Virus record (IMG/VR): IMGVR_UViG_3300025117_000106
Location: 1-46,389 of that record
From: a virus
Taxonomy: Duplodnaviria > Caudoviricetes
Direction: 5' to 3' (one strand)
Length of the DNA: 46,389 nt
Shown here: positions 9,999-44,242 of the stretch, piece after piece
How the letters are laid out: each line of letters starts with the position of its first letter
Numbering within the stretch: the first letter of the stretch is position 1
Program-made: the position numbers and the translations under genes
Notes under the pieces: generated by a model
Seen by the model: the letters and a program-made list of their open reading frames with translations, nothing else
Told to the model about the DNA's origin: nothing
The model's database searches: none

Positions 9999-10090
9999 TA
10001 AAACTATCCCTAACACTAATAACAGTAAGTGCTATTGCAAAAGGGTTTTGTGATAGTATAAAAGATAAAAATAAAAAGATAAAAGTATGA
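9995..10090 (+). pseudogene. 31-aa micro-ORF, probable truncated paralog of the membrane gene at 15757
   Basis: Translated by hand as MIKLSLTLITVSAIAKGFCDSIKDKNKKIKV*; ATGA overlaps at both ends; 'AKGFCDSIK' matches 'SKLLCDLIK' in ORF 15757. Confidence 0.55.
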
Positions 10091-10563
10091 GAAAAAACAT
10101 AGCCTCTGTAAAGGTTGTAAAACTACCAAGCGATTGGACTACAAGTACCAGTGATTTTGGGAATACGCCCTTTTTCGGTTCAGGGTTTAAGGTTATTTCT
10201 ACTCTTGATTTTATCAATGCTGTTAATGCAAACCCAAACCTAACAGGGAGACCACGAATCGGGACAGTAATAGACAACAGGTTAAAGATATTTCCTGTTC
10301 CAACTGCGGATTACGCCGGAGCCGAATTAGAGTTTCTTGTTTACTTAAAATCCGCAACAACAACGATTAGTAAGACAATAGAACCGGAACTACCTGAAGT
10401 ATTCGATAAGTGCTTGGAGTATTTTGCAACAAGTCAATTTCTTTCAGGGAAAGATCGAGTGCAATGGCAAAGCGATTACAGAAACGAACTAATGAGATTA
10501 CGCCCGATAGAACACAGAAAGCATTTTAATCTATCACGCCCAGCAATAACAGGATGGAAATAA
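10087..10563 (+). CDS. C-terminal part of a head-tail adaptor/ring protein (158 aa)
   Basis: 'TGRPRIGTVIDNRLKIFPVP...EPELPEVFDKCLEYFA' is the adaptor C-terminal signature; it lacks the N-terminal helices seen in ORF 4052. Confidence 0.75.
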   Translation: MRKNIASVKVVKLPSDWTTSTSDFGNTPFFGSGFKVISTLDFINAVNANPNLTGRPRIGTVIDNRLKIFPVPTADYAGAELEFLVYLKSATTTISKTIEPELPEVFDKCLEYFATSQFLSGKDRVQWQSDYRNELMRLRPIEHRKHFNLSRPAITGWK

Positions 10564-23294: not shown

Positions 23295-26200
23295 ATGTCA
23301 AAACAACCGCAAATATTAAAGTTCAAGGATTTTGATTGGGGGGATAAGCCCGATACCGATACCCTTGTTAAAGATAAACCCAAAGCCTTTAATGATTTTG
23401 ATTGGGAAGAAAAGAAACCGGAAACAAAAGGCACACCGGAAACAACCGTTCCTCTTTCAACTGAAAGATACAAACCAACAAATGTTTTCGATGCGTTCAA
23501 TACTACAAATGCAAAATTACCAATTCTTGTTCCAGACAAAGTTCCCGAAGAAAAACCACAGACAAAACAGCCCACAATAAAAGAAGGATTAAGCGGAAGA
23601 ATACCAGTTCCACAATTTGAAGGATTCGCTCTACCGGAACAAGGCACATTAGATCAAGCGTTATTTAATGTTGCACCTGAGTTTGTTAAGAGACAGCAGG
23701 AGAGAGAAGAATTAAGCAATAAATTATGGAAAGGGATACAACAAGGTTCCGAAACAATAGAACCATTATCCGGACAAAGATTAGGTGATCTTAAACTTGA
23801 AAATGCACCAATGGGAGAAGTGCGAAACGCTATTGACTTAGTTGTAAATTCAGGATTAAAGATGATACCGGGAACGATTGAGGCATTAGGTTTAATCGCT
23901 GATAAAATAGTTCAAAGAGGTCTAAGTCCTCAAATGCGAATTGAAGATTTTATTCCACCTGCACCAACAGTAAGTAAATTTACAGGAGATATTGGAAAAA
24001 CGGTAAGAGAAGGAATTGACACCTTTGCACCAACAGACCCGAAGATAAAAGGATTCTTTAGTTCTACACTCCCTTCCGCAGTGGGAAGCGGACTTGGATT
24101 TTTAGCTGGAGGACTTGGAGGGAAAGCCATAAAACTACCTACCATGTTAAGCACTTTACTATTATCAACATCTCAGGCAGCCGAAGAATATAATAGCGCA
24201 TTAAAACAGACCGGAGATTATAATAAAGCCTATAATGTTTTTATTGGAAATCTTCCTTTCGCAGCAACCGAAGTTGTTCCATTTGAATTTTTGTTTAAGA
24301 GATTAGATAAACTTGGCGGTAGGAAAGGAACGCAATTACTAATTGATATGCTCGTTCAAGGTACGGTTGAGGGTTCGCAAGAAGTAATACAGCAGTTTGG
24401 CACTAACCTAAATGCTAAGTTAATCTATGATGCGTCAAGAAGTTTAAGCGAAGGAACATTGGAAGGGGGAGCAGCCGGATTTATTACAGGCATGCTGTTA
24501 TCAGGCATAGGAAATATTGCGTCAAAGAGACTTGAAGAAGGGAATCTAACGCCAGAAGAAATAAAACATCTTATAAAAACCATTGAGAAAGTAAACTTAT
24601 CAAAAGCAAAAGTTGAAGCAGAGTTTAAGAACTTTCAAACCGATGCAACCGTAAGAGATTTACTCAATCCAGAAAAAATTAAGACACAGTCGAAAGATTA
24701 TCTCAAGCAAACCGAACAAGAACCATTACAACCTCCAGCGAGAGATATTGAAAAAGGAACAATCAACATCGAACCGGGAGGATTGGACTTAGGAACGCTT
24801 ACCGATCTTACACCACAGGAAAGACAAAAGAACGGACTACCACAGACAGAATCTTTTGATAAAGACCTTGAGTTAATAAATGCAGTTGCACAAAAAACAG
24901 CAAACGGAATTACTGATCTTACCGAACAGGAAAAAATAATTCAAGAAGTTTATTCAACACAAACAAATGATTTAGTAAAGCAGATAAAAGAATCACCAGA
25001 ATTCAGACAACAGCAAAGTATTATTCGTCAACAAACAAAACAAAAACAAAAACTTGACACCGATAACTTTGCAGAACTAACCAGACAATTCAAAAACGCA
25101 CAGCGCAGGAGAGTTCTTGTAGATCCCGGAACACTAACTCAGGGAGTAGAAGGAATAACAACGCCTGAGCTTAAAACAAAAGCAGAAACTTTATTCAAGG
25201 AAGCCACAGAATATAATAACAAGTTACAGAAGCGAAACGAATTTACCCTTGAAAATTTAAGCAGAAAGAAATTTGGCACAGAGAGTATTAGCACCTTAGA
25301 TGAGGAACAACAGCAAGCACTTCTCTCCGAATTTAACGAGATGAAAAAGCAAGGATTCAAAGAGTTCAAAAACATTCAACCAATAACCAAAGGAGGCGGA
25401 TATGCCATACAAAAGCGACAAGCAGAGGAAATACTTCAACGCCAACCGGAAGAAATTAGGGAACAAGTTAGTGAACGAGTTCAACCAGGAATCGAAGGGA
25501 TTAGACCTCCCGAAGAAGTCATCTCCGAAGATCAAAAAGAGAAACCCGAAGAAGATGTCAGTAAAGGACAGGGTAAGGAAGAAACTCGGAATGTAAAAGA
25601 GGAAGATGATTTCTTTATAGACTTGGAACCAACGGAAGCACAGAAAGAAGCAGGTAACTATAAAAAGGGTCACATTAAAAGAGATGGTTTTGATATATCA
25701 ATAGAAAATCCGAAAGGTTCTATCCGGTCCGGAAAAGATTCAGATGGCAAAACTTGGGAAACGAAAATAAATAATGATTACGGATATATTAAAGGAACGG
25801 TAGGAAAAGATAAAGATCATATTGACGTTTTCCTTTCAGACAATTATCAGGAAGATGCCCCTGTATTCATAGTTAATCAAACCACACCCGAAGGGAAGTT
25901 TGATGAGCATAAGGTAATGCTCGGTTTTACTGATAAGGGAGAGGCAGAACAATCCTATATTTCAAACTATGAAAAAGGCAAAGCGAATTATTCTGATATT
26001 ATAGAAATGCCAATGGATGAATTTAAGCAATGGAGTAAGGACCAGAATTTAACAAAGAAACCCGCAGTTAAACCGACAGAGCTTATTGACGATGAGATGG
26101 ATGATCTTGTTAATCAGCTTACGGAAGAACCGCCACCGGAACCGCCAAAGAGTGAAGGTAAGCTATCATCTTGGTATGATAAGTTTGAAGAATTAAAATC

Positions 26201-29200
26201 TAAAAATGATTTGGCAGGGCTTGATAATCTTTATGGCAAAGTAAAGATTGCACTTAATGGAGTTGCACAAGGCAGAAATGCTGTCCCTGAATTTGAAGCA
26301 TTAAAAAAAGAGATTGAAAGCTATGCAGAAGAAATAAAACCAAAACCTCCTGAGACTAAGATAGAGAAGCAACCAGAAAAAACCCTTCCTGAAGATGCCT
26401 TTGCAATCAAACTAAAATCCGGTAAAGTTATTGCAGATAAAGAAGCGGAAAACCACACACAGATCATAGAGAAGAATAACATCAATGAAGATGATGTTGT
26501 TGATGTAGGTTTTATTAGTGAAAATAAATTTCTGACCACAAAAGAACTTTCTGAAAAAGTAAAAATGGAAATTGCTGAAGAAAAGAAACCGTATGAAATG
26601 ACAGATGATGAGTGGTTAGATAAAACAAGATTTTACAGATCAGGCAAAGATAAAATGGTCGAAACTCCCGAAGGAAATAGAGTAATTCTAAAAGCAGAAA
26701 ACACGCCCTCAAATTATAAAGAAAACAGCAGAGATTTTTTACTAAACATTGTTAGAAAGAGACACATAGCGCAAGCGCTCAAAGAGGGTAAAGATATTCC
26801 AGAGGAAGTATTAAAAAATTATTCTGATTTACAGATTAGTGTAGAAAAATCAATTGAGAAACCAGAACCCGATAATAATGCAGTAGCAATCAAAAGAATG
26901 CTATCAGAGGGAAAGACGCTTGAACAAATATCTACCGCCCTTAAAATTCCAATCAATGAAATTGAACCGTTATTACCAAAAGAAGAAAAAGAAGCAGTAG
27001 AAGAACCCGAACCAGAAAAATCCCCAACGGCAATTGAGACCTCGGAACAAATAATGAGAGATGCTAAGGGTTATCCAATTGCGATAGATGATTATGGAAC
27101 GGAACACACAATAAAACTTTGGGGTACTCACATTGTAAGAATAAAAACAGAAGACCCAAATGAAATGCGACTTGGCGGAACAGGCTGGGAGTGGTACGGA
27201 TTCAAGAAGTCCGGCGATATATGGGAGGGATTTGTTCACGGATTTGAGGATGAGTATGGAAGTTTTTCAGAGAGCGAACTAAAAGAAAACGGCGTAACAA
27301 TCAGGACAGACCCAAAAGATTTACTTGAATTGATGCCTCCGATTGGCTGGAAGTGGAAACAGAAACCCAAAGCCATTCCTATGAGTAAACTTGGGAAGGC
27401 TCCGGAGCCAAAACCAAAAGTAGAAAAGAAACCCGAACCTCCATCCATCATTGACGATGAAATGGATGCCCTCATAAACGATATAGATTTCCAACTAAAG
27501 AAACCAAAGACCACAGACTATAAAAAAGATATTGGATTCAAAACAGTTACATCAAAACAGAAACCAACATATCAACTTAAACCAGGCGAAAAGATTCCTG
27601 CCGACAAACAACTTAAAGCAATCGAGTTAGTAGGAAAGTTCATTGAGAAAGAATTATATCCATTCGATAATATCGTACAGGCAGTAAGACAGAAATACGG
27701 AGATGAAAGAACCGAAAGATTACTTCCTGCATTAAAGTCTGGATATTCAGCATACCTATCAAATGCTACCGATGCAGAAACAGAGAAGATGGATAGCTTT
27801 GATTATGTAAAGAAATATGCACTTGAGGAAACAAAACCAGAGAAAAAGAATCGTACAACAATCAGACCTGTACTTGCAACAGAGGTAAGAAATCTTCTTA
27901 TCGACGTAAATAAAATGACACCCGCACAGGCTGATTATAAACTCAAAGGAACCGACATTGAAACTCTTGAGATATGGAAGAAAGAACTTACTGAGCGAGG
28001 CAAGGGAGAAACCGGAACAACATTAATTAGCAGACCATTCATCCAGAGAGTAAGAGAAGAAATCAGAAACGGAAATCAACTAACAAAAACACAACTCGAA
28101 AAGATTGCTAAAGAATATGACATTACCGATCCAAGCATAGCAAAAGAACAGGCTGAGCTTGCCATTGTTGCTGAAGCAAGAAAGATTATAAACGAAACCC
28201 CGAACGAGAAAGAGGCTTACGATAAAGTTGTTGAGATGTACGGCAATCAGCCAAATCTTACTCACAGGACAAACATATCGGTAGAGAACCAACAATACTC
28301 AACCCCCGCACCAATATCTTATGTTGCCGGACTTTATGTTGCTGATGGAATCGGTAACGGTGATGTATTGGAACCATCCGCAGGAAACGGAATGTTGGTT
28401 ATTGCTTTCAATACAAGCCAGGTATATGTAAATGAACTCGATGAAATAAGGAACGCCAATTTAAGACAGACCAAATATGAAGGTATATCAAATGTAGATG
28501 CAGAAAAGAACGATAATATTTTCAATAAAAAATTTGATGGAATAATAACCAATCCGCCATTTGGTAGTGTAGAAGAAAAGAAGTTCAACGATTATAAGTT
28601 GAATAAACTCGAACACGTTATGGCTGCCAACGCACTAAAACAAATGAGAAATGACGGCAGAGCATCAATCATCATTGGCGGACACAACAGATATGATAAT
28701 AAAGGAAGATTGCAGAACGACAGGACATTCTTTAATTGGCTATACCATTATTATAACGTAGAGGCGGTATTAAACATTAGCGGTGATCTCTATAAAAAAC
28801 AAGGTACACAGTTCCCGATCAGACTAATATTAATCAATGGCATAAAGGAAACCCCGCAAGGGGCATCACCTTTATTTGATGCTCAAAGAGACGCTGAGAT
28901 AAAAGATTTTGAAGATTTGTATAATAGAGTTAAGGAGATACGAGATGGAAATATACTACAACCCGGAGTTGATGCACAACGAAGACCAGGCGGAATTACT
29001 GATGTGCGAAACCCCGAAGGGAAAGGAATTCAAGAAGCTGGAAGAACTGAAACCCTTCCTGAAACAGAGGCTAACAAACCTGATAAAGAAAAGCCCGCAG
29101 GATCTGGAAAAACTACAACAGTTAGTGAACGACCTTCTGGAAGTGGAGAACCCATATCTGGAAAGCCCGGAGCAATTAGCGGAACTGATACTGGAAAGCC

Positions 29201-32200
29201 CCCATTACAACCAGGCATTGAGCCAAAACCCAAAGGCGGAGGAAATAGAGAAACTGAGCGAAAAGGAAATGAAGGAGATATTCAATCAGGGTTCGATAGA
29301 GAATCTTCTTCAATTACTGCACGAGCAGTTTTAGATTCCGAAAAACCTTACACTCAATACGAATCAGAATCTAAAGGAGTATCGCTTGATACAGTTATTC
29401 CCCGCAATATGGATTATGATACCCGCAAAGAACTAAGACGATTAGCAGATGAAGTTGGCGGAATTGATGAATTTGTGAAAGATAAATTAGGTTATGAATC
29501 AACTGAGAAATTATTTTCTCATCTCGGAGCTGAACAAATTGATGCAACAGCGATGGCTATCGTTGCTATTGAAAAAGGACAGGGGATGATTATTGGTGAT
29601 ATGACAGGAGTTGGTAAAGGCAGAATTGCAGCAGCAGTCATAAGATATGCAGTAAAAGAAGGATATAAACCAATATTCTTAACGGAGAAAGCCTATCTAT
29701 TTTCTGATCTTTATAGAGACCTTGTTGATATTGATAGTAAAGAACTCAATCCTTTCATAGTTAATAATCCCGGAGGCAATGAAAGTCCAGATATAGTTGA
29801 TGAAGATGGTAATGTAATTCATAGAGCCTACATGGGTGTAAAGAAAAATAACGTACTTTCTTCAGGAGACATTGGGAAACACGATTTTATTGTTACGACC
29901 TATTCACAATTCAATAGTGAAAAAAGAGGATTGAAAAGAAATTTCATTGAAGAAATGGCTACTGGTAATATTATAATTATGGATGAAAGTCATACTGCAA
30001 GTGGAGATTCAAACACAGGTGAATTTTTCTCTCGTATAGTTCAGAAAACAAAAGGAGTAACATTCCTCTCAGCTACATTTGCAAAGAGACCGGATAATAT
30101 GCCGATCTATGCACTAAAGACAGCCATAAGCGAAGCTAACCTTACGAGAGACGATCTCGTATCAGCGATTGAAAGCGGTGGAGTTGCATTACAGGAAATT
30201 CTATCTACTGATATGGTGGAAGCCGGGCAGATGATTAGACGTGAAAAAAGCTATGATGGAATAAGTATAGATTATAAACCATTGGTAGAAAAGAAAGCAG
30301 AGCATAGTAAAGTAGTTGATAGCATAACCGATATAATAAGGGACATTATAAATTTCCAGAACGAAAACGTTAAACCGATTATTGATGCAATGGACACAGA
30401 CGCAGCATCCGAAGGTGAAAGAGTTACTGTTGAACAGGGGACTAATATGGCGGGAGTTGATAATACTCCATTTGCATCTAAGGTATTTAACGTTATAGAT
30501 CAATTACTATTTTCACTTAAAGCAGATTCCGCAGCAGACGAAGCAATAAGATTGCTTAAAGAAAATAAGAAGCCTGTTATTGCTATAAAAAACACAATGG
30601 AATCTTTTCTTAATTATATGGGAGTGCAACCAGGAGACGTTCTTGAAACTACTGACTTCTCGCTTATAATGAGGCGTGGACTTGAAGGGGTAATGAGAAT
30701 AAGAACGAAAGATGTAACAGGCGAAGGTACTCCGGGAGAATTATCATTAAATGATTTATCAGAAGATGGCAGGAAAGAATATAGAAGAATACTTGATAAG
30801 ATAAGTCAAACCACATCAGGGATAACAATTTCACCAATAGATCAAATGATTTACAAATTAGAAAAAGAAGGATATAAGGTTGGCGAAATTACAGGAAGGG
30901 CGATTACTCTAAAATTCAGGGATGATGGAAAAGCCATTGTTGAGAAACGTACAGAAAGAGGGAAGAAAAAGATTTTAAGAGATTATAATAATGGAACAGT
31001 TGATGTAATATTATTAAATGCTTCGGGAGCGACAGGTTCATCAGCGCACTCATCACCAAAGTTTAAGGACCAAAGACAGCGAGTAATGGTAACGGTTCAG
31101 ATAGAACTTAACATTAATACCGAAATTCAAAAAAGAGGGAGAGTAAACAGAACCGGACAAGTAAATAAACCTGCTTACATTACCTTATCAAGTGCAATTC
31201 CGGCTGAACAACGATTGCTCATGATGGCAAAGAAGAAATTAAAATCATTAGATGCCAACGTATCATCAGACCAGAAACAAGCAGGAGAAACATTTGAAGC
31301 AAGCGATTTTCTTAATCATTACGGAGACAGGATTGTCGTTGAATATCTGAAAGAGAACCGGGAACTGAATGATATGCTTCTTGATCCTCTCAAGATGAAC
31401 GAGATGAAAGAAGAAGAATTTGAGAAATTCCAGACTAAAGAAAACGCAGCGCACAAAGTAACCGGCAGAGTAGCAATACTTCCTACGCAATTACAGGAAG
31501 AATTTTACAGCGAAATGGAACACAGGTATAATGATTTTATAGAATATGTTGATTCAGTTGGTGAAAATGATCTGGAAGTAAAGACATTTAGATATGATGC
31601 TGTAACAATTACAAGCAGAATGTTAGTCGCCGGGAAAGGCGGATTTAGCCCATTTGGTAGAGATTCAATTGTTGAGAATACTGAAGTAAACGTATTGAAG
31701 AAACCTTTTAAGATTGAAAAGATTAATGAATTACAGGATAAGTATTTAGAAGGGACAGGAAAGAAAGAAAGAAAATCCAAGTTACAATCAGACTTCAAAT
31801 CATTTTGGGATGAATGGGTAAAGACACATCTCGACAGGAAAAAAGAAGTGATTGCAAAAGATTTCAAGATTAGTATTGAAGATGTCAATTCACATCTCAA
31901 AGGCGGACTATCAATCGAAGATATGGAAAAACGATTTCCTCATTTAATTGGCAAATCGGGATTTATTGAAAGAGAATTTACAAAATATCAAGAACTCTAT
32001 AATAAATTGTTTTATCAAGGTGAGTTTGTTGCTAATAATATCTTAGGCAGATATGATATTGGCAGGGTCTATAAAACTCCTCTTGTAAGAGATCAAGTTG
32101 CGCCAATATATTCAAATGGAATTTTCTTAGGTTGGGAAGTAAATACTAAGAGAAAAAATCCGTATGCGCCAAGTGCAATCAGACTAAGATTTGCAGTAGC

Positions 32201-35200
32201 AGATTCAAGACAGATGGTTATTATACCAGGTTCACAAAGAGATTGGCTGAACGATCTATCGAGTGAAACTTACAGCAGACTTGAAGCATGGCAGGAAAAA
32301 GACATTGTTGAAAATTGGGATAATTCTTTACCAGACAGTCGAAGGGAAATGAAACCGATTGTAACCGGCAACGTCCTCCAGGCGATGAAGGATGTAAAGG
32401 GCGGTCAACTTGTTACCTACACTACTAAAGAAGGTGGACTAAAAAGAGGAATACTTCTAAAGGATAGTAAAGCAATTTCAAGCGGTGAAGTAAGAGTACC
32501 TATTAAGAGAGCAAAAAAATTCATTCAACAAATAGGATTAGGAGATTTCATTGAGAGTGCCTCCGGTGATTTAGCTCTTATTAATGACAGTAATAAATAT
32601 TGGTTAATCGAAGTACCGGCAAGTAAACAAAAAGGCGGAAAATATTATCTTGATGAAGGTCTAAGGAAACTTGTTGCGGATGGCAGATTCGATAAAGTGG
32701 GTGACAGGATGAGAGGCAATGTACTAAAGAAAAACCTCGATGCACTTATAGATTTACTTCAGGATGATTTTGGAATCAGTGTAAGACTATCACAGAAAGA
32801 CATCAAGAAAATAACCGATGATGATATTTCATTTCAATTAAAGGGCGGGAAAGTTTACAAGGATGATTTTAATAATGATATCCCTGCCAGGTTCAGCAAG
32901 ATTCACGAATACAAATTAGGACACCCAAGATTAAAGAACACAAAGATTGAAGTTGTAGAACCAAAAACAGTATATTGGACCAGAGAAACAATAGAATCAA
33001 CTGGTTATACGCCAGAATTATTAGAATTAGAATTATTAAAAAAAGGAGATTTTGGTTATGAAGAAGGAAAAGAAAAGTACGCCGTTGCAATTACAGGGTA
33101 TCACAGGAGTAATCCTGAACAAGCCGGGTCATCCATCACCGTCAGTAGCAGAGCGACTCGCAGCGCATATACCGAAGAACTTATCCATACAATCGTTAAG
33201 GGACTTGAAAAAGAAAGTCCACGCCTCTTACGAAAAATCACAGATTGGGAATCAGGACTAAGAGAACAAGCGAAAGAACTTGGAATAGATATCCCGCAGG
33301 AGGGAGAAACCTTCGCTCAAGCTATGGTATTCTCTCATCTTGGATATGCTGACGAACAACCTAACGTTGCAGAAGTATATGAAATCCCAAAAGACATCCT
33401 TGATGAATTTACTGCAATCCTTAATGAAGGGAAGGTATCTTCAGACGTACTAAGGGGAGGATCTCAAAGAGGAGCGATCAGACTACCTTCCGGTAAAATC
33501 GATAATTCACTACATATTTTCAGAAACAAAAAACGAAACACAGCATTACAATTAGTCTCTCCCGAAAATAAAAGATTAAACAAGGGGAGAGAAACTTACG
33601 TTAAATTAAAATCTGAACTTGGAGAAAAAGCAGACGTTTATTTGAAATGGTTAAAGGATATGAGGCAGGAATATGGAAAGGACTTTGATCGGGATAGAAA
33701 AGTATGGAAACAAATAAAAGATGCTTCGTTCCAACTAAAACCTGCACAGACAGGAAAGATCGAGGTTGACAACGAATTTATTGAGAGAGCAAAGAAACAT
33801 TTTGGAGTGACTGATAATTATAAAGTTGCAGGTTGGATAACCACAGATGGAAGTATGCTGGACTTTAGCGACAAATCATCCGGAGGACAATCAAAATTCA
33901 GGACACAAGGACACGAAGAAATAGGCAAGTTTGAGAAGGATAAAACTCATTATAATAAATACTCATTTAACGAGATGGGTAACATTAGGGTGATATCCTT
34001 ACTTTGGGATAATGGTATAGAGATTGCTCAACCCCCGACAACAGCGCAGAAAGAAATAATTAAGAAAATAGTTGCGGATCTTGATGGGAATATGAATGTT
34101 GAGATCAGACCGGATTCAGATAATCCTTTTTACAAGGTATATAGAAAGGGAACTACACCTGAAGAAATACTTGGGGACATATCAGATTACTTTGCAGGAA
34201 AGATAAGAAGACCGAGTTCTCTCTCACAATTTAGGGCATCATATCAGTTAAAGAAACCGCAAACAGGCACACCAGAGTTTAAGAAGTGGTTTGGCGATAG
34301 TAAGGTAGTTGATGAAAACGGAAAGCCATTAGTCGTTTATCATGGTACGCCTGATGCAAGTTTTACAGAGTTCAAATCAGAATACAAAGGAACAAGAACT
34401 AACCATAATCCTGAAGATGTTGGATTCCATTTCACAAATGATCCTGCTTTATCAGACGCATATTCTAAGGCATATCTGGTAGAGAGTTATACGATTTATA
34501 AGAAAATGTTCCCGGAAGACACTCCAACTGCTTTATTGAATGATATGGGAACTGCACCAGGTACATATCCTATTTATTTATCAATTCAAAATCCATTAGT
34601 AGTTGATGTTTCTAAACAAATTAATAAAAGTCTTATTGACCAAGCAAAAGCCGATGGGTATGATGGTATTATTGCGGGTGCTGGTAAAAATAAAAACGAA
34701 TATGTAGCCTTCAAACCGACACAGATTAAATCCGCAATAGCAAACAGAGGAACATTTAACGTTGATAATCCCAATATCAGTTATCAACTAAAGAAACCCA
34801 AGAGAGATAAAGCAGAAAGATTCTCAGGAAAGAAATTTGAGACCGAACTCGCAAGAGAACAAGGAAGGGAACCCGAGACCGGAGAGGGAAACATTGTTGA
34901 CTTTGGCGCAGGATTAGGGCAGGTATTTACTGTAACGGCGGATAAGATCACAGACTTTGTTCGCAACCAACAAATTGAAAAAGAATTAGGCATATACGAT
35001 CCAAAGCTCAGGGCATTTTACAGGGAATTTCTAACCGCACCTGTATTTTTCTTTGATAAAGAACCTCAACTAAAGAGATTTTGGGATATTGTAGATAGGC
35101 ACTATGTAAGAAATATTAACGAAGAAATTGCAATACTGACAGAGGATAAATGGTTAAGTGGAAAAGGATGGAGAGACCTAAAAGATATTCAGAAAAAAGA

Positions 35201-37901
35201 ATTCCTTTCTGCACTCGAAGAATACGAACAGATGCAATATGAACTCCAAAGAGATGAGGGAGCAACAGAACTTCTCGATTGGGCTGATTTTGCTGATGAA
35301 TACGCACTAACGCCGGATGTAACAAGATTCCTTTTTGATGTTTATAAGCCAACAATTGAAACCGCTCTCGATATGGTAAAGGATGTTGACAGGTACAAGA
35401 TCATCAACGAAACAAAAGTTAATCCATACCTTGAAAACTATTACGATGCCAAAGCAGCAAAAGCAAAACAAGCCTTAATAGATTCAGAGTTAGAAAAAGG
35501 GAAAGATGAATTCTTTAATGACGACCCTAACGCCGAAGCTCTTTATGAAAACGAACTATTAAAAATGCCACAGGGGAAAGTTGATGTAGTAAAAGCACTC
35601 GAATTAGCATGGGGAAACAACCCACAGTTGCGGGAAACACTCGCGGAAGTATTAATTGATAAAAAGTATGAAAAGATAGATGGCAAAGCATACTTTACTT
35701 CATCAAGATTAGAGAAAGAATATTTTCTTAATGCAAACAGGAAAACCACACCGGAGGAAAAACTTCTTGAAGGGAAAATGGATGATAGATATTTCACCAC
35801 AAATGATAGTCTGACAAAACTAAAGGCACTCCGGGTAGAACTTGAAGCGGAAGGTTATACGATAAGAGATAAAGATATAGGGAAGTTTGCGGATGCACAG
35901 GAAGAAATATTACAGAATGCAATAACTCAGGAAGATGTTCTTGATCTTGCGATCTCAGCCGGAGTAGATCAGGACAATCCAATACTTGAAAGACTTGTTA
36001 AAACAATTCAGGCAAAAGGATTCAGCAGACATTTCATCCCTAAGAGATTTATTCCCGGATTTGAATACACGACAGAGAATTTTGAGGAGGCTATATATAA
36101 GTATATTAATTCCGTACCTTTCTATAAGAACAGAACAATTGGCGGTAAAGAACTTGAGAAGACGATGAGCCAGTTAAAAGCTCAGGGAATACTTGATCCG
36201 AAATCAGCAAACAACAGGTATATCCAAGACCTCAGAACTAAGATTGAGGGCAGGGATGTAAAGTTATCAACCGCATTAAGGGCAGTTGCATCAACCTATT
36301 ATCTTGCATTATCACCCGCTTATCTATCACAACAGATCGTACAGCCATTAAATACGCTATTGCCATTGTTACCAGTGGTAGCAAAAGAATTAGGATTAAA
36401 AGCAATTGAAGCCGAGAAAGCATTTGGAGAATCATTATACTCATCACTTGGATATTGGGCTTGGAAGGTTTACGACAAAACGCACAGAGTATTAGGCAGA
36501 CCAACAAACGCCACGTTTGGGTTAGATAGAGAATTTCTCTCAGTGATAAGATCACTCGAAAGGCAAGGAGTTGGAAAACCATTAAGAGCGATGGAATTAG
36601 CAGGACAGAAAGTTGATCCTAAGAAGTATTATGCTTCCGACATATTAACTCAATCTACAAAAATGACAAAATGGTTAGCTACAATAGCAGGAATACCGGG
36701 CATTGTAATTGAAGATTTTACCAGAACAATAGGAATAAGAGCATTTTACACTTTAGGTAAAAAAGCTGGACTGAAGGGAGATAAATTAGAGGACTTTATC
36801 TCAACGAATATAGCCAAGTCTTATGGTCCGGCATCAGGAAGATTAGCAAAACCTCCGGGATATTATATTGCAGGTGAGGGAAGAATGAAGCCGATGAAAG
36901 AGGTTGCACAATCGACAATAGAATCCTGGTTGACATTTAAGAACTTTGCATTTATGAATTTCGGACAATGGGGAAAAATATGGAGAGCATTAAGAAACAA
37001 TACTATGTTCAGACCAATAGCTTACAAATTAGGAGCACAGATCGCATTAGGCGGATTAAAATATATGATGTGGACTTCATCAATACTTACATTATTAAGT
37101 GGTCTTTATGCTTTACTTAATGTTACCGAAGATCCCGAAGAACAATACGAGGGATTATTTAAGCATTTCAATAAACTCATTCCCGGATTAGGAGACGCAT
37201 TATATAAAGGTGTAGCTTCAATAACATTCAAAGTTGATTTGAGCGCAATGTTCGGACAGACAGCTCCACTTGAAGAACCATTTACAAAAGATGCAGTACA
37301 ACTTATCGGAGGCGCACCCGCATCAGCCATTGAAGATATTATCGGAGGAAGATTGCCGAGAGGAGTAAGAGGATTTCAGCAGGTAGAAAAATATGAAAAA
37401 GAAGGGGTGAAGTTAGGCAGCAGAAAATTGATTCCTTCAGAAAAAGATTATAAAGAGATGGATAGTTCAGAAAAGAAAAAATCAAGACCTCCAGTCACCG
37501 AAGAAGAAAAGATAAAACGTAAACTTGGTTTTACTCCGTTAAGAATATCGGACGCATACCAGGAAGAAAATAACAGACAATTTAAGTCAGGTCAATACAC
37601 GGACATAATAAGAAATAAAGTTACAGACAAAATTATTCCAATGATCGAGACAGGCAGGGGGAAAGAAGCGAGAGAGGAGTTCAAAAAATTATTTGAAGAA
37701 ATGAAAGCAGATAATATTCTAACGAAGGGACAACTTGAATCAGTTAAGACCACAAATAATTTTATTTCTCAGATAGTTTTGACACGACTTCAGCAAGAAG
37801 AAAGAGATTTCATAAAAGGCTGGAAGAACGGACGTAGCAACTCCCGTACCAGAAAAGGAGAGGAAAGAGAGACCAGAACAAGAGAAAGCGAAACAAGATA
37901 G
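23295..37901 (+). CDS. Giant polyvalent (DarB-like) virion protein, 4868 aa: InPase, DUF2958-like, N6-adenine MTase, strawberry-notch SF2 helicase, zincin-like segment, ART-PolyVal
   Basis: InPase 'GNYKKGHI..ISIENPKGSIRSG..YGYIKGT.GKDKDHIDVF' (~25620-26040); DUF2958-like 'WEWYG..GFVHGFEDEYGSFSESEL' (~27100-27350); MTase 'QQYSTP/VLEPSAGNG/NPPF' (NPPF 28551); helicase 'GDMTGVGKGR' (29595), DESH (29982), 'GRVNRTGQ'; ART 'FKKWFGDSKVVDENGKPLVVYHGT..EYVAF' (~34260-34780). Confidence 0.92.
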   Translation: MSKQPQILKFKDFDWGDKPDTDTLVKDKPKAFNDFDWEEKKPETKGTPETTVPLSTERYKPTNVFDAFNTTNAKLPILVPDKVPEEKPQTKQPTIKEGLSGRIPVPQFEGFALPEQGTLDQALFNVAPEFVKRQQEREELSNKLWKGIQQGSETIEPLSGQRLGDLKLENAPMGEVRNAIDLVVNSGLKMIPGTIEALGLIADKIVQRGLSPQMRIEDFIPPAPTVSKFTGDIGKTVREGIDTFAPTDPKIKGFFSSTLPSAVGSGLGFLAGGLGGKAIKLPTMLSTLLLSTSQAAEEYNSALKQTGDYNKAYNVFIGNLPFAATEVVPFEFLFKRLDKLGGRKGTQLLIDMLVQGTVEGSQEVIQQFGTNLNAKLIYDASRSLSEGTLEGGAAGFITGMLLSGIGNIASKRLEEGNLTPEEIKHLIKTIEKVNLSKAKVEAEFKNFQTDATVRDLLNPEKIKTQSKDYLKQTEQEPLQPPARDIEKGTINIEPGGLDLGTLTDLTPQERQKNGLPQTESFDKDLELINAVAQKTANGITDLTEQEKIIQEVYSTQTNDLVKQIKESPEFRQQQSIIRQQTKQKQKLDTDNFAELTRQFKNAQRRRVLVDPGTLTQGVEGITTPELKTKAETLFKEATEYNNKLQKRNEFTLENLSRKKFGTESISTLDEEQQQALLSEFNEMKKQGFKEFKNIQPITKGGGYAIQKRQAEEILQRQPEEIREQVSERVQPGIEGIRPPEEVISEDQKEKPEEDVSKGQGKEETRNVKEEDDFFIDLEPTEAQKEAGNYKKGHIKRDGFDISIENPKGSIRSGKDSDGKTWETKINNDYGYIKGTVGKDKDHIDVFLSDNYQEDAPVFIVNQTTPEGKFDEHKVMLGFTDKGEAEQSYISNYEKGKANYSDIIEMPMDEFKQWSKDQNLTKKPAVKPTELIDDEMDDLVNQLTEEPPPEPPKSEGKLSSWYDKFEELKSKNDLAGLDNLYGKVKIALNGVAQGRNAVPEFEALKKEIESYAEEIKPKPPETKIEKQPEKTLPEDAFAIKLKSGKVIADKEAENHTQIIEKNNINEDDVVDVGFISENKFLTTKELSEKVKMEIAEEKKPYEMTDDEWLDKTRFYRSGKDKMVETPEGNRVILKAENTPSNYKENSRDFLLNIVRKRHIAQALKEGKDIPEEVLKNYSDLQISVEKSIEKPEPDNNAVAIKRMLSEGKTLEQISTALKIPINEIEPLLPKEEKEAVEEPEPEKSPTAIETSEQIMRDAKGYPIAIDDYGTEHTIKLWGTHIVRIKTEDPNEMRLGGTGWEWYGFKKSGDIWEGFVHGFEDEYGSFSESELKENGVTIRTDPKDLLELMPPIGWKWKQKPKAIPMSKLGKAPEPKPKVEKKPEPPSIIDDEMDALINDIDFQLKKPKTTDYKKDIGFKTVTSKQKPTYQLKPGEKIPADKQLKAIELVGKFIEKELYPFDNIVQAVRQKYGDERTERLLPALKSGYSAYLSNATDAETEKMDSFDYVKKYALEETKPEKKNRTTIRPVLATEVRNLLIDVNKMTPAQADYKLKGTDIETLEIWKKELTERGKGETGTTLISRPFIQRVREEIRNGNQLTKTQLEKIAKEYDITDPSIAKEQAELAIVAEARKIINETPNEKEAYDKVVEMYGNQPNLTHRTNISVENQQYSTPAPISYVAGLYVADGIGNGDVLEPSAGNGMLVIAFNTSQVYVNELDEIRNANLRQTKYEGISNVDAEKNDNIFNKKFDGIITNPPFGSVEEKKFNDYKLNKLEHVMAANALKQMRNDGRASIIIGGHNRYDNKGRLQNDRTFFNWLYHYYNVEAVLNISGDLYKKQGTQFPIRLILINGIKETPQGASPLFDAQRDAEIKDFEDLYNRVKEIRDGNILQPGVDAQRRPGGITDVRNPEGKGIQEAGRTETLPETEANKPDKEKPAGSGKTTTVSERPSGSGEPISGKPGAISGTDTGKPPLQPGIEPKPKGGGNRETERKGNEGDIQSGFDRESSSITARAVLDSEKPYTQYESESKGVSLDTVIPRNMDYDTRKELRRLADEVGGIDEFVKDKLGYESTEKLFSHLGAEQIDATAMAIVAIEKGQGMIIGDMTGVGKGRIAAAVIRYAVKEGYKPIFLTEKAYLFSDLYRDLVDIDSKELNPFIVNNPGGNESPDIVDEDGNVIHRAYMGVKKNNVLSSGDIGKHDFIVTTYSQFNSEKRGLKRNFIEEMATGNIIIMDESHTASGDSNTGEFFSRIVQKTKGVTFLSATFAKRPDNMPIYALKTAISEANLTRDDLVSAIESGGVALQEILSTDMVEAGQMIRREKSYDGISIDYKPLVEKKAEHSKVVDSITDIIRDIINFQNENVKPIIDAMDTDAASEGERVTVEQGTNMAGVDNTPFASKVFNVIDQLLFSLKADSAADEAIRLLKENKKPVIAIKNTMESFLNYMGVQPGDVLETTDFSLIMRRGLEGVMRIRTKDVTGEGTPGELSLNDLSEDGRKEYRRILDKISQTTSGITISPIDQMIYKLEKEGYKVGEITGRAITLKFRDDGKAIVEKRTERGKKKILRDYNNGTVDVILLNASGATGSSAHSSPKFKDQRQRVMVTVQIELNINTEIQKRGRVNRTGQVNKPAYITLSSAIPAEQRLLMMAKKKLKSLDANVSSDQKQAGETFEASDFLNHYGDRIVVEYLKENRELNDMLLDPLKMNEMKEEEFEKFQTKENAAHKVTGRVAILPTQLQEEFYSEMEHRYNDFIEYVDSVGENDLEVKTFRYDAVTITSRMLVAGKGGFSPFGRDSIVENTEVNVLKKPFKIEKINELQDKYLEGTGKKERKSKLQSDFKSFWDEWVKTHLDRKKEVIAKDFKISIEDVNSHLKGGLSIEDMEKRFPHLIGKSGFIEREFTKYQELYNKLFYQGEFVANNILGRYDIGRVYKTPLVRDQVAPIYSNGIFLGWEVNTKRKNPYAPSAIRLRFAVADSRQMVIIPGSQRDWLNDLSSETYSRLEAWQEKDIVENWDNSLPDSRREMKPIVTGNVLQAMKDVKGGQLVTYTTKEGGLKRGILLKDSKAISSGEVRVPIKRAKKFIQQIGLGDFIESASGDLALINDSNKYWLIEVPASKQKGGKYYLDEGLRKLVADGRFDKVGDRMRGNVLKKNLDALIDLLQDDFGISVRLSQKDIKKITDDDISFQLKGGKVYKDDFNNDIPARFSKIHEYKLGHPRLKNTKIEVVEPKTVYWTRETIESTGYTPELLELELLKKGDFGYEEGKEKYAVAITGYHRSNPEQAGSSITVSSRATRSAYTEELIHTIVKGLEKESPRLLRKITDWESGLREQAKELGIDIPQEGETFAQAMVFSHLGYADEQPNVAEVYEIPKDILDEFTAILNEGKVSSDVLRGGSQRGAIRLPSGKIDNSLHIFRNKKRNTALQLVSPENKRLNKGRETYVKLKSELGEKADVYLKWLKDMRQEYGKDFDRDRKVWKQIKDASFQLKPAQTGKIEVDNEFIERAKKHFGVTDNYKVAGWITTDGSMLDFSDKSSGGQSKFRTQGHEEIGKFEKDKTHYNKYSFNEMGNIRVISLLWDNGIEIAQPPTTAQKEIIKKIVADLDGNMNVEIRPDSDNPFYKVYRKGTTPEEILGDISDYFAGKIRRPSSLSQFRASYQLKKPQTGTPEFKKWFGDSKVVDENGKPLVVYHGTPDASFTEFKSEYKGTRTNHNPEDVGFHFTNDPALSDAYSKAYLVESYTIYKKMFPEDTPTALLNDMGTAPGTYPIYLSIQNPLVVDVSKQINKSLIDQAKADGYDGIIAGAGKNKNEYVAFKPTQIKSAIANRGTFNVDNPNISYQLKKPKRDKAERFSGKKFETELAREQGREPETGEGNIVDFGAGLGQVFTVTADKITDFVRNQQIEKELGIYDPKLRAFYREFLTAPVFFFDKEPQLKRFWDIVDRHYVRNINEEIAILTEDKWLSGKGWRDLKDIQKKEFLSALEEYEQMQYELQRDEGATELLDWADFADEYALTPDVTRFLFDVYKPTIETALDMVKDVDRYKIINETKVNPYLENYYDAKAAKAKQALIDSELEKGKDEFFNDDPNAEALYENELLKMPQGKVDVVKALELAWGNNPQLRETLAEVLIDKKYEKIDGKAYFTSSRLEKEYFLNANRKTTPEEKLLEGKMDDRYFTTNDSLTKLKALRVELEAEGYTIRDKDIGKFADAQEEILQNAITQEDVLDLAISAGVDQDNPILERLVKTIQAKGFSRHFIPKRFIPGFEYTTENFEEAIYKYINSVPFYKNRTIGGKELEKTMSQLKAQGILDPKSANNRYIQDLRTKIEGRDVKLSTALRAVASTYYLALSPAYLSQQIVQPLNTLLPLLPVVAKELGLKAIEAEKAFGESLYSSLGYWAWKVYDKTHRVLGRPTNATFGLDREFLSVIRSLERQGVGKPLRAMELAGQKVDPKKYYASDILTQSTKMTKWLATIAGIPGIVIEDFTRTIGIRAFYTLGKKAGLKGDKLEDFISTNIAKSYGPASGRLAKPPGYYIAGEGRMKPMKEVAQSTIESWLTFKNFAFMNFGQWGKIWRALRNNTMFRPIAYKLGAQIALGGLKYMMWTSSILTLLSGLYALLNVTEDPEEQYEGLFKHFNKLIPGLGDALYKGVASITFKVDLSAMFGQTAPLEEPFTKDAVQLIGGAPASAIEDIIGGRLPRGVRGFQQVEKYEKEGVKLGSRKLIPSEKDYKEMDSSEKKKSRPPVTEEEKIKRKLGFTPLRISDAYQEENNRQFKSGQYTDIIRNKVTDKIIPMIETGRGKEAREEFKKLFEEMKADNILTKGQLESVKTTNNFISQIVLTRLQQEERDFIKGWKNGRSNSRTRKGEERETRTRESETR
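25402..25596 (+). CDS. Nested +1-frame gene: small basic MPYKS-type phage protein (64 aa)
   Basis: AGGAGG at 25391-25396, 5 nt before the ATG; 'MPYKSDKQRKYFNAN..VNEFNQESKGLDLP' resembles a recurring small phage protein type as I recall it. Confidence 0.75.
   Translation: MPYKSDKQRKYFNANRKKLGNKLVNEFNQESKGLDLPKKSSPKIKKRNPKKMSVKDRVRKKLGM
28945..29334 (+). CDS. Nested +1-frame gene: acidic helical protein (129 aa)
   Basis: AAGGAG at 28932-28937, 7 nt before the ATG; amphipathic L/E/K-rich product; exactly occupies the MTase-helicase linker. Confidence 0.7.
   Translation: MEIYYNPELMHNEDQAELLMCETPKGKEFKKLEELKPFLKQRLTNLIKKSPQDLEKLQQLVNDLLEVENPYLESPEQLAELILESPHYNQALSQNPKAEEIEKLSEKEMKEIFNQGSIENLLQLLHEQF
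33058..33261 (+). CDS. Possible third nested +1-frame gene (67 aa)
   Basis: AAGGAG at 33043-33048, 9 nt before the ATG; the main frame uses atypical C-ending codons here. Confidence 0.4.
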   Translation: MKKEKKSTPLQLQGITGVILNKPGHPSPSVAERLAAHIPKNLSIQSLRDLKKKVHASYEKSQIGNQD

Positions 37902-41335: not shown

Positions 41336-42121
41336 ATGGCAGTAACAAAAAAGAAACCAAGAAGCAAGCCGATTGTTAAAGGAAAACAATCATCAATTGA
41401 AAAACTGATAGCACAGGCAATAAATAAAAAAGCCTTTGATGCAATTGACATGATAGTTGGTTACGATAGAGAACTCAGAGCGGAGAAAGCTAAGAGATCA
41501 TACTTCACGGCAATGAGAACCTTCCAGAACGAAGTGCCTGATTTACCAAAGGTTCAGGAAGCGACTGATAAAAACGGAAGACATTACAAATTTTGTCCCC
41601 TTCCTCTTATAGTAGTGAAGATTCAGCCCTTCATTTATAAACTAAATTTCATTTACAGATGGGATTTTAAGGCAATTGGCGAAAAGATTGAATGTACTTG
41701 CATCAATACCCACATTGACGGACACTCGGAAACAGCAAGTATGACGGCGGACAGGGATGATTCTGAAAGTATGAACAACCTCCAAAGTATTGGCAGTACC
41801 AACACCTATTTACAGAGGCGTACATTAATTGCTGTTCTTGGACTAACTACGGCTGAGGAAGATAATGACGGAGCGACAGCAAACACTTCAACAAAAACAA
41901 CCTCCGCTATTCCAGATCCTCAAGCAATCTCTAAAGAGAGAGAAGCATTAGAGGCAATGGCAATAGAAGAACTTGTTCTTAAAGTAGAAACGGATATTCT
42001 TGATAAGTCTCTCAAGGAGAAATTCAAAGATAGATTTGAGAACGGAAAAGTTATATTCACCGCAAAGGAACAAGGTGAGGTCAAGAAACTTATTATAGAC
42101 ATAATCCTTGAGAAGAAATAA
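41336..42121 (+). CDS. erf: ERF-family single-strand annealing protein (261 aa)
   Basis: 'HIDGHSE', 'QSIGSTNTYLQRRTLIAVLGL...EDNDG' ERF signature. Confidence 0.85.
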   Translation: MAVTKKKPRSKPIVKGKQSSIEKLIAQAINKKAFDAIDMIVGYDRELRAEKAKRSYFTAMRTFQNEVPDLPKVQEATDKNGRHYKFCPLPLIVVKIQPFIYKLNFIYRWDFKAIGEKIECTCINTHIDGHSETASMTADRDDSESMNNLQSIGSTNTYLQRRTLIAVLGLTTAEEDNDGATANTSTKTTSAIPDPQAISKEREALEAMAIEELVLKVETDILDKSLKEKFKDRFENGKVIFTAKEQGEVKKLIIDIILEKK

Positions 42122-42336
42122 TGAATAAACAATTAGCGGACTTTGCACGAGAAGAACTAAAAAAAGGGTTAGCGCAATTACCTGAATCTAACCAATTAAT
42201 GTTTAGGCGTATGTATTCTCATAAAAATTTGGATGCTGATATTAATGAAGTTGTCGATAAAATGCCGAATGATAAATTGGATTGGGCAATGCAACAAGTA
42301 GAGAGTTCGTTAGCCACAATTAAAAACAATCCTTGA
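42121..42336 (+). CDS. Hypothetical protein (71 aa)
   Basis: TAATG coupling. Confidence 0.7.
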   Translation: MNKQLADFAREELKKGLAQLPESNQLMFRRMYSHKNLDADINEVVDKMPNDKLDWAMQQVESSLATIKNNP

Positions 42337-42345
42337 GAAGAAATA

Positions 42346-42543
42346 ATGGAAATAAGTTTAAGAGATTATTTTGCCGGACACGTAGTACAAGGACTAATGG
42401 CGAATGAATTTGAAACCCTTGATTTGTTCAAGGGGGTGAAGGAAAAAAAAGAGAAAGAACTCAAACAACTTGCATCCGTAGTATATAAGATTGCGGATGC
42501 ACTAATAGAAGAAAGGAACAAAAGCAATGATAAACTCAATTAA
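42346..42543 (+). CDS. Small phage protein with 'SLRDYFA' motif (65 aa)
   Basis: 'SLRDYFAGHVVQGL..YKIADALIEER' is a common phage family pattern. Confidence 0.75.
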   Translation: MEISLRDYFAGHVVQGLMANEFETLDLFKGVKEKKEKELKQLASVVYKIADALIEERNKSNDKLN

Positions 42544-43540
42544 AACGGCATACAGAATAAACGTTGATAAGCGAGGGAAGATCACTACTGGAATAAAGAA
42601 AAAAAATGATAAGGGCGTGGAATATCCATCAACAACAGATTACTTTGTTATAGATGAATTTCCCGAACTTAAAGCTATTTATGGAGAGAAGCCCAAAAAG
42701 CTGATGTTAGTTTTTCCACAAAACGAAATTTCAAGTTTCCTTCAAATCGATAAAGTGTTATACGGTTCCAATAATGCAATGATTCGCAAATGTGATGAGA
42801 TAGAGTGCATACATAGAATTGATGAAGAATTAGATCACGTTGGAATAATTGACGTAGATGGAAGTTTGAAAGAAACAGAACCTTTCAAAAAGAAATATGT
42901 AGCTGGAGAAATATCCGAATGTTGTTGTAAGACAATGCCATCGATGATTACAAAGAATGGAAAAGAAGTTAAGAATCCGAAACTATGTAATTGTGCAATG
43001 TATATGAAAGCGCACATTGTTGATTACAAAACAAAAAAGATTGTTTCTCCAGTCTGCTATTTGTTTTATTCCGGAAGTATCAATACCGCAGCAAATATTT
43101 ATAGCGAGTTGGATAAAATAAAAACGATCACAAATGGAAGGCTCGCAAATATTCCTTTTGGACTTTCTCTTGATATGGTTGGCGGAAAAATGGATGCAAA
43201 GAGAAAATATCCAATCTGGAACATCCAGGTATTGGGAACAATGGAGCAGCTTGAAAAAGCCACAAACTCTTTCCTTTATGGATATAGAGATATGTTACAA
43301 ATCGGTGAGGGTGAAGACGAAGGAATAGATGATTCAAAGTCATTGCCGGAACACCCCCCAATTCAGGAAGACGATCTTATATTAAAGAAAATCCAGAACG
43401 CCAAAACCAAAGCGGAGCTGAATGATATCTTTGGAAAGTTAGGAGAGGAAGAACAAGGGAAATACATTACGGCAATACAGGATAGAGAACAGGAGATAGC
43501 AAATCCGGAAAGTGGATTGTTCGGAAAAGACGAAAACTAA
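42527..43540 (+). CDS. Recombination-directionality-factor-like (phiC31 gp3-like) protein (337 aa)
   Basis: 'GKITTGIK..YPSTTDYF..YGEKPKKL..P', 'RKCD', Cys cluster, 'SGSIN..GRLANIPFGL'. Confidence 0.65.
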   Translation: MINSIKTAYRINVDKRGKITTGIKKKNDKGVEYPSTTDYFVIDEFPELKAIYGEKPKKLMLVFPQNEISSFLQIDKVLYGSNNAMIRKCDEIECIHRIDEELDHVGIIDVDGSLKETEPFKKKYVAGEISECCCKTMPSMITKNGKEVKNPKLCNCAMYMKAHIVDYKTKKIVSPVCYLFYSGSINTAANIYSELDKIKTITNGRLANIPFGLSLDMVGGKMDAKRKYPIWNIQVLGTMEQLEKATNSFLYGYRDMLQIGEGEDEGIDDSKSLPEHPPIQEDDLILKKIQNAKTKAELNDIFGKLGEEEQGKYITAIQDREQEIANPESGLFGKDEN

Positions 43541-43552
43541 AAGGAGATAACT

Positions 43553-43762
43553 ATGGAACAAACCAAAGTAGAGAGATTGGTCGTTAAGCAAGCATTAAAA
43601 ATTGATGACTTAAAAAAAAGGTTGCGCCATTCTGAAAAACTAATAAAGACGGTTTTACTAAAAATAACCTGTATAGGCGCACCACTTAATGACAATATGC
43701 TTCATTATAGCAAAGAGCAACTAAAAATATTTATTGAAATCCAAGAGATTTTATCAGCTTAA
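43553..43762 (+). CDS. Hypothetical protein (69 aa)
   Basis: AAGGAG SD; 'CIGAPLNDN'. Confidence 0.7.
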   Translation: MEQTKVERLVVKQALKIDDLKKRLRHSEKLIKTVLLKITCIGAPLNDNMLHYSKEQLKIFIEIQEILSA

Positions 43763-43813
43763 AACTAATCTGCAATAAGCAGACAATTAAAAATAAACGT
43801 ATAGGAGTTATGT

Positions 43814-44242
43814 ATGCCTAAGAAAACACCGGAGAAAAAACCAAAGAAGAAATCGGATAAACCCAAATCTTCTTCTGCCTCCAAATCGCCCGAACTTCCT
43901 GAAGGTACAATGACACATCTTCAGGTAATTAACGTTGAGAGAAAACTCACACAAAAAGAAGTTGCGGAATGCGGAACAAATCTTGCAACACAGGAATTGC
44001 AGTTGGACCAGGTTCGTAAAGAAAAGAAGGAAGCCAATAGGGAATTTGATAACACTATCAAAGATCACCTGAAAAACATTATGCAATTTTCACACGCAAT
44101 TGATACAGGCATTCTGGTAGAAAACATTGAGTGTGATGTTGTGATTAACAGGGAAAAGGAAACAAAGTATTGTTATCCTAAAGACGGTTCAGAAATGATT
44201 ACTTTGAAAATGACACCCGAAGACTTTGATCTTCTTTCTTAA
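43814..44242 (+). CDS. Hypothetical protein (142 aa)
   Basis: AGGAG SD; basic N-terminal tail and coiled coil. Confidence 0.7.
   Translation: MPKKTPEKKPKKKSDKPKSSSASKSPELPEGTMTHLQVINVERKLTQKEVAECGTNLATQELQLDQVRKEKKEANREFDNTIKDHLKNIMQFSHAIDTGILVENIECDVVINREKETKYCYPKDGSEMITLKMTPEDFDLLS

Follow-up and report, generated by a model that had tools for sequence, protein, structure and literature searches.

A probable small gene nested out of frame in the methylase–helicase linker of a giant phage protein, and its free-standing homologs

Can the linker between two enzymatic domains of a giant phage protein conceal a second gene, and if so, what would the small protein do and which gene arrangement came first? 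These questions are raised by the caudoviral record IMGVR_UViG_3300025117_000106 of IMG/VR, analysed here from position 1 to 46,389 (the window, 46,389 nucleotides in full). Its giant gene encodes a large polyvalent protein of 4868 amino acids (the host protein), and between the adenine methylase and helicase of this protein lies an open reading frame (ORF) of 129 codons, termed here gene 2, which is shifted by +1 relative to the host frame. Comparison of homologous loci makes it nearly certain that gene 2 is a real gene. The addition of this work is the finding of a free-standing form of this gene, located between separate methylase and helicase genes. The features of the locus are the following.

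23295..37901, + strand: host gene for the 4868-aa large polyvalent protein, with InPase, adenine methylase, strawberry-notch SF2 ATPase and ART-PolyVal domains (Pfam)
28014..28928, + strand: N6-adenine methylase region of the host, with TP, GxG and NPPF motifs (limits are anchor estimates)
28929..29339, + strand: low-complexity linker in the host frame, 137 codons (anchor-based), 94% of it covered by the nested ORF
28932..28937, + strand: Shine-Dalgarno (SD) word AAGGAG, 7 bases before the ATG, duplex -9.2 kcal/mol
28945..29334, + strand: nested gene 2, 129 aa, acidic, in the +1 frame of the host ORF, from the ATG at 28945 to the TAG at 29332-29334
29340..31583, + strand: strawberry-notch-like helicase/translocase, AAA_34 plus Helicase_C_4 (start is an anchor estimate)

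The gene 2 frame is the longest +1 run of the host gene (143 codons from stop to stop, the next being 86), and its SD ranks second among the 172 ATGs of the +1 frame, the first rank belonging to another nested ORF, gene 1, considered below. AAGGAG with identical spacing also occurs in the relatives L001, L002 and L238, and the last of these, a fourth close relative, keeps SD, start and frame alike. An in-frame TTG is located upstream at 28909; since a +1 stop precedes the ATG by four codons in the two closest relatives (L005 and L006), the ATG is the conserved start. The product has a net charge of -12. The SD, its seven-base spacing, the 129 codons, the quoted peptides and the acidic product described in the initial annotation are all present in the sequence and its translation. 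The G/P/E/R/T-rich host frame that it placed between methylase and helicase is borne out by the Pfam positions and by the composition, which is G/P/E/R/T/S-rich over the nested span, the disorder of the linker being judged from this composition alone. The same source cautioned that a hydrophobe-poor linker may leave its +1 frame open by chance, and for a single sequence this caveat is valid: only 6 host L/I/V/M sites in the linker are able to create a +1 stop, and when the host amino acids are fixed and the codons redrawn from host usage, the probability of an open frame is 0.05 for the window linker and ranges from 0.14% to 66% over 16 loci, the top value occurring in a GC-rich relative. The open frame in the window sequence alone is weak evidence for a gene.

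The substitution pattern is more telling. In the window clade, the distance at host third positions is 0.40 and 0.51 in the two flanks and 0.18 in the overlap, where it becomes the least variable position; the three positions of the +1 frame in the overlap show distances of 0.27, 0.17 and 0.38. Amino acid identity in the overlap is 66% for the +1 frame versus 50% for the host frame (60% versus 44% when the fourth relative is included), and among 128 columns, 52 vary at +1 position 3 only and 14 at position 2 only (sign test, p=2.8e-6). A flip to +1 constraint was revealed in 4 of the 5 clusters with two or more distinct sequences. These comparisons indicate that purifying selection acts on the nested frame and that, judged by substitutions, the +1 frame is the more constrained of the two.

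An internal negative control is provided by a third conserved ORF of the same giant gene.

33058..33261, + strand: +1 ATG-ORF of 67 codons with an SD-like word, the third-best SD

Its ATG and SD-like word are kept in 4 of 4 relatives, with identity of 42% in the +1 frame versus 54% in the host frame. It was rejected as a gene because its substitutions follow the host frame, the ORF seemingly arising from conserved host residues. This case is a caution that an SD and a conserved open frame are insufficient to call a gene.

To describe how gene 2 is distributed, an alignment of 14 methylase–linker–helicase homologs was used as the query, and of 555 viral and 574 genome loci the best 79 and 80, respectively, were taken; 4 viral and 2 genome loci in which methylase and helicase are separate genes were left out, while the window and the cultured phage BS-TP4 were added, giving 77 viral and 78 genome rows. 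Linkers of at least 100 aa were considered long, and an ORF qualified when it lay in the +1 frame, began with ATG, had 100 aa or more and covered at least half of the linker. Such an ORF is present in each of the 75 viral linkers that are long (from 73 IMG/VR loci, the window and BS-TP4), only 2 of the 77 viral rows being short-linkered, so the open +1 frame with its ATG, whose conservation the initial annotation had named as a check, is uninterrupted throughout. The viral rows are redundant and collapse to 26 lineages at 90% flank identity, 14 at 70% and 10 at 60%. The linker comprises 115–185 aa with the nested gene and 26–67 aa without it. In Bacteroides phage BS-TP4 (PQ571277, gp3) the nested ORF occupies the equivalent site, at about 10032-10391 of the record, and is unannotated; as this phage is cultured, translation and function are directly testable.

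No qualifying +1 ORF was found in the 10 long inserts of cellular homologs, the other 68 of the 78 genome rows having short linkers. At the junction these ten homologs (L092, L103, L105, L110, L129, L132, L136, L140, L155 and L158) hold a folded insert, and both of the two inserts that were scanned are MutS_I domains, which suggests that the site is an insertion hot spot. In a Xanthomonas plasmid homolog (L245) the +2 frame is open across the whole 171-codon linker, probably as a high-GC effect.

The gene 2 product has no Pfam, PHROG or Atlas match, and neither does a free-standing homolog in the Atlas; the lack of an Atlas match is no proof of novelty. Its protein homologs include four at 44–47% identity and 13 representatives at E<=0.001, most of them from short contigs without gene context. 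No match was returned by tblastn when annotated phages were searched with the product or plasmids with the homolog P0132, and a metagenome scan returned only the window, one known relative and one chance match in an unrelated protein. By profile comparison, the homology of the window clade to L011/L015, L017/L018 and L009 was established, and the family was also linked to the L030 gut group and to ORFs of cyanobacterial plasmids. For the latter, hhalign gave 72% and E 3.5e-5 over 121 columns, with 0, 0 and 4 of 300 decoys matching the score; the homology scores exceed those of host-synonymous decoys. These cyanobacterial strawberry-notch genes (L242, L243 and L244) are annotated, and their homologous +1 linker ORFs of 146–169 codons are not.

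The structure prediction proposed for the 129-aa product yielded a confident, mostly helical model: AlphaFold2 with 24 sequences gave a predicted local distance difference test (pLDDT) of 89 and a predicted template modelling score (pTM) of 0.83, in which seven helices accompany a pair of short strands close to the N-terminus. Foldseek at E<=0.001 found no match in the PDB (0 of 114) or the BFVD (0 of 215), and the best Z-score of VIA-align among 48,161 chains was 3.0, with death-fold domains in the top rows, too weak to use; the absence of a fold match to the predicted model does not prove a new fold. The conserved columns are chiefly leucines and an N-terminal aromatic–proline motif. DNA mimics of the Ocr and ArdA type carry a strong, conserved negative charge laid out like the phosphates of DNA. 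Across 16 lineages, the net charge of the gene 2 product varies from 0 to -24, and no mimic fold was matched; since the charge is not conserved, the suggestion of a DNA mimic is weakened.

A 20-row profile of the family, searched against 401 genomes of one Bacteroidota order, revealed three matches in two genomes, with E-values of 2.6e-15, 4.9e-14 and 1e-9 before their addition to the profile, and a redrawn sample of this search found the identical three places. Each of the three has an ORF of its own, which is preceded by a methylase gene and followed by one for a strawberry-notch helicase; an AAA_5 ATPase gene is next in line, and a DUF7192 gene comes after it in both loci scanned. Two of the copies overlap the methylase stop as ATGA, and L228 retains, at the 3' end of the small gene, an overlap with the helicase start whose frame relation matches that of the phage. 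The would-be host frame at the three copies has 13, 5 and 3 stops. Hence, where the two enzymes are encoded separately, it is the small protein that persists and not the linker peptide, which suggests that the host linker is largely a by-product of gene 2 read one base off. Just upstream of one free-standing three-gene set (L232:13238-19998, minus strand) there is a type I restriction-modification cluster with a confirmed HsdM. In L013, a second methylase-like stretch is seen by eye at the end of the split methylase gene, and the gene after it is methylase-like again. Other genome searches gave 0 of 5, 1 of 401 (a chance match across a stop), 1 of 351 (a fusion) and 1 of 185 (a nested phage copy), while the families of the two genomes with free-standing copies gave 1 of 13 and 1 of 20, with nothing new.

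Which form came first was considered on a tree rooted on four proteobacterial plasmid or phage homologs without the family ORF. The deepest split has nested rows on either side, free-standing and gene-less rows lie within a well supported inner group, and three state changes suffice. Because the cyanobacterial ORFs are homologous, the simpler reading leans to a nested gene first, with later release and loss. The nested state would then be old, shared by phages of gut and environmental bacteria and by cyanobacterial plasmids, and in Bacteroidota elements the gene may have been freed in one group, as part of a three-gene operon, and have disappeared from another. Alternatively, the three-gene operon may be ancestral, the gene being engulfed by fusion once or more. 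The initial annotation spoke of an overprinted gene: a selected gene nested in the linker stands, and a new frame laid over an older linker does not, since the +1 frame is the more conserved and free-standing and fused homologs exist. A de novo overprinted gene was rejected on the same grounds, and a very ancient de novo origin with later release may nevertheless be considered.

As to function, we suppose that gene 2 encodes an accessory partner, a regulator or folding chaperone, of the methylase–helicase pair, a proposal to which we give about an even chance. The inhibitor or chaperone role suggested at the outset is plausible because the order of methylase, small gene and helicase is conserved. 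Ribosomes would initiate internally at gene 2's own start on the mRNA of the giant gene, and the small protein would thereby be made alongside the giant virion protein, late in infection. It may bind the methylase or the ATPase part and hold it folded or idle until packaging and ejection; a co-expressed brake or chaperone would suit a very large protein, which presumably has to be kept tractable up to packaging. A broader reading, which we regard as tentative and somewhat short of an even chance, is that strawberry-notch methylase–helicase modules in phages and plasmids have an unrecognised third subunit with a new fold, the gene of which alternates between a nested out-of-frame form in the fused giant gene and a free form between split genes, and that disordered linkers in the giant polyvalent proteins of virions are often off-frame shadows of small genes. 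If this were true, a hidden layer of phage proteins would escape annotation.

Several results weigh against the picture of an old, nested accessory gene. In the L017/L018 cluster, both frames are about equally conserved (74% and 76%). The SD, the conservation of which had been proposed as a further check, is strong in each of the 4 window-clade members, but in only 6 of 16 representatives across lineages. The L028 and L022 gut-phage types, L026 and L075 were left unlinked to the window family by profile–profile comparison, while L075 matches the L030 group and the ORFs of all four sit at the equivalent site. The test of direction is unstable: monophyly of the nested form was rejected with all 31 rows (p=0.0008), but not without L025/L026 (p=0.16) or when the cyanobacterial rows were also removed (p=0.63); the group for this test was chosen after earlier trees, and long branches are involved. 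The free-standing form is known from 3 loci in 2 genomes. The family domain is also fused to unrelated proteins, namely P0131 and P0136, which have hydrophobic N-termini, and L236, which lies on a 3.4-kb contig without a methylase or helicase ORF. Finally, no family member was detected near 78 fused cellular methylase–helicase genes or 7 split pairs, so these enzymes can work without it.

The last two of these points speak for the rival that survives best, although we regard it as unlikely on balance: an independent job, in which the acidic protein would act on a target of the bacterial host in counter-defence or takeover, while the giant transcript would serve as an expression slot and the gene would be kept by linkage. 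The fusions to unrelated proteins, the occurrence of the domain away from methylase–helicase genes, the many methylase–helicase loci without the gene, the fast divergence between lineages and the example of gene 1, a small unrelated gene that nests in a linker too, are consistent with it. However, 3 of 3 free-standing copies remain between methylase and helicase even though they are freed from the overlap, and no family member lies elsewhere in any of the fetched giant-gene loci.

A programmed frameshift, by which the +1 frame would supply an alternative C-terminal domain of the methylase in a short isoform, is improbable. The frame does open within a few codons of the methylase end, where a conserved helix of the methylase region directly precedes the nested start, and the domain occurs as a C-terminal fusion in other proteins, but the frame is opened by an ATG in 75 of 75 loci, the SD of the window clade is strong, L005 and L006 have the +1 stop four codons upstream, and the free-standing copies are separate ORFs.

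Highly improbable is a selfish out-of-frame insert homing into methylase genes. Its model is ShiLan, an HNH insert hidden out of frame in actinophage methylases, as described by Arsenault et al. 2025 (PMC11855218). The layout is shared, with an out-of-frame gene within a phage's gene for a DNA methylase and a host frame that reads through as a loop, and the lengthening of the linker where the gene is present agrees with insertion. ShiLan is, however, a patchy homing endonuclease without a detectable ribosome-binding site, according to that work. Gene 2, in contrast, is fixed even between deep lineages, being present in 4 of 4 close relatives and 75 of 75 long viral linkers; the window clade has an SD for it, and free-standing copies occupy the equivalent position. 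Its product is mostly acidic with a mostly helical model, no nuclease family or fold was matched, and nuclease families are absent among 20 aligned family members. A homing endonuclease of this type was therefore rejected. A chance open frame, for which the probabilities given above (0.05 in the window, up to 0.66 in the GC-rich relative) and the seemingly by-product ORF at 33058 speak, is close to negligible in view of the codon-position flip, the free-standing homologs, the confident predicted fold and the homology above decoys. The probability that is left belongs to roles outside those listed here.

The accessory-partner reading also draws on the class of the host protein, the domains of which are placed by Pfam as follows.

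Residues 781-915: InPase
Residues about 1708-1803: MTS/Eco57I methylase, scores marginal or below cut-off
Residues 2092-2328: AAA_34, E 9e-17
Residues 2514-2763: Helicase_C_4, E 3e-23
Residues 3673-3821: ART-PolyVal

The STP and NPPF of the methylase are invariant in 20 aligned homologs, which assigns it to the gamma-class N6-methylases, and an SF2 ATPase C-terminal to it, together with InPase and ART-PolyVal in the same chain, makes the protein DarB-like; its PHROG matches to virion and DarB-like families are restricted to the InPase region. Iyer et al. 2017 (PMC5512222) describe methylase–helicase dyads as virion-borne, DarB-like proteins, which are presumed to translocate while methylating the incoming DNA. 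A co-expressed brake or chaperone would agree with such a role. As in the P1 DarB class described there, a gamma-class adenine methylase is fused to an SF2 ATPase in a giant multidomain phage protein; in the window, the ATPase is of the strawberry-notch kind and is accompanied by InPase and ART-PolyVal. The section on dyads in that paper, unlike our locus, includes no nested gene or third small component, and its main text is free of the words “overlap” and “linker”. We found no description of gene 2 in the literature, subscription papers and the supplements of Iyer et al. 2017 being outside the coverage. Our results point to a small protein, hitherto uncharacterised, as a partner of the DarB-like anti-restriction enzymes.

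Small genes wholly embedded in another frame are already known, such as Rz1 in Rz of phage lambda and comS in srfA of Bacillus. The Rz1 product partners its host protein, and separated Rz/Rz1 arrangements exist. No relation in sequence, fold or function was found between gene 2 and Rz1 or comS, and gene 2 spans an inter-domain linker of a DNA-modifying enzyme. Here one family is nested, free-standing or lost at a single site, and these states therefore provide a natural series on how overlaps arise and dissolve.

The idea of genes in the linkers, which the initial annotation had derived from two nested ORFs, holds for gene 1 too.

25402..25596, + strand: nested gene 1, 64 aa, basic, +1 frame, in the linker before the InPase domain; SD AAGGAGG at 25390-25396

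Its SD and ATG are kept in 4 of 4 close relatives, and the selection signal has the same sign as for gene 2 and is weaker (71% versus 55%). Small basic phage proteins, that of gene 1 among them, form a widespread family with no Pfam or PHROG match (46 distinct sequences in 58 loci, L168-L225); 16 of the 46 are nested +1 within a long host frame, and the other 30 are located outside one. These findings are a warning that in giant phage proteins the +1 frame of low-complexity linkers has to be read too. Further protein-like +1 ORFs are seen in such linkers at L164:6504 (54 aa), L075:4085 (57 aa), L028:4151 (76 aa) and L030:3500 (79 aa), and likewise at L014:3665 and 4433 and L009:3719; among these, the ORFs of BS-TP4 and L075 look alike by eye. 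The window genes of known type are on the + strand throughout, and downstream of the giant gene (41336-46134) they include an ERF recombinase, a Gp3-like protein and a separate SNF2 helicase gene.

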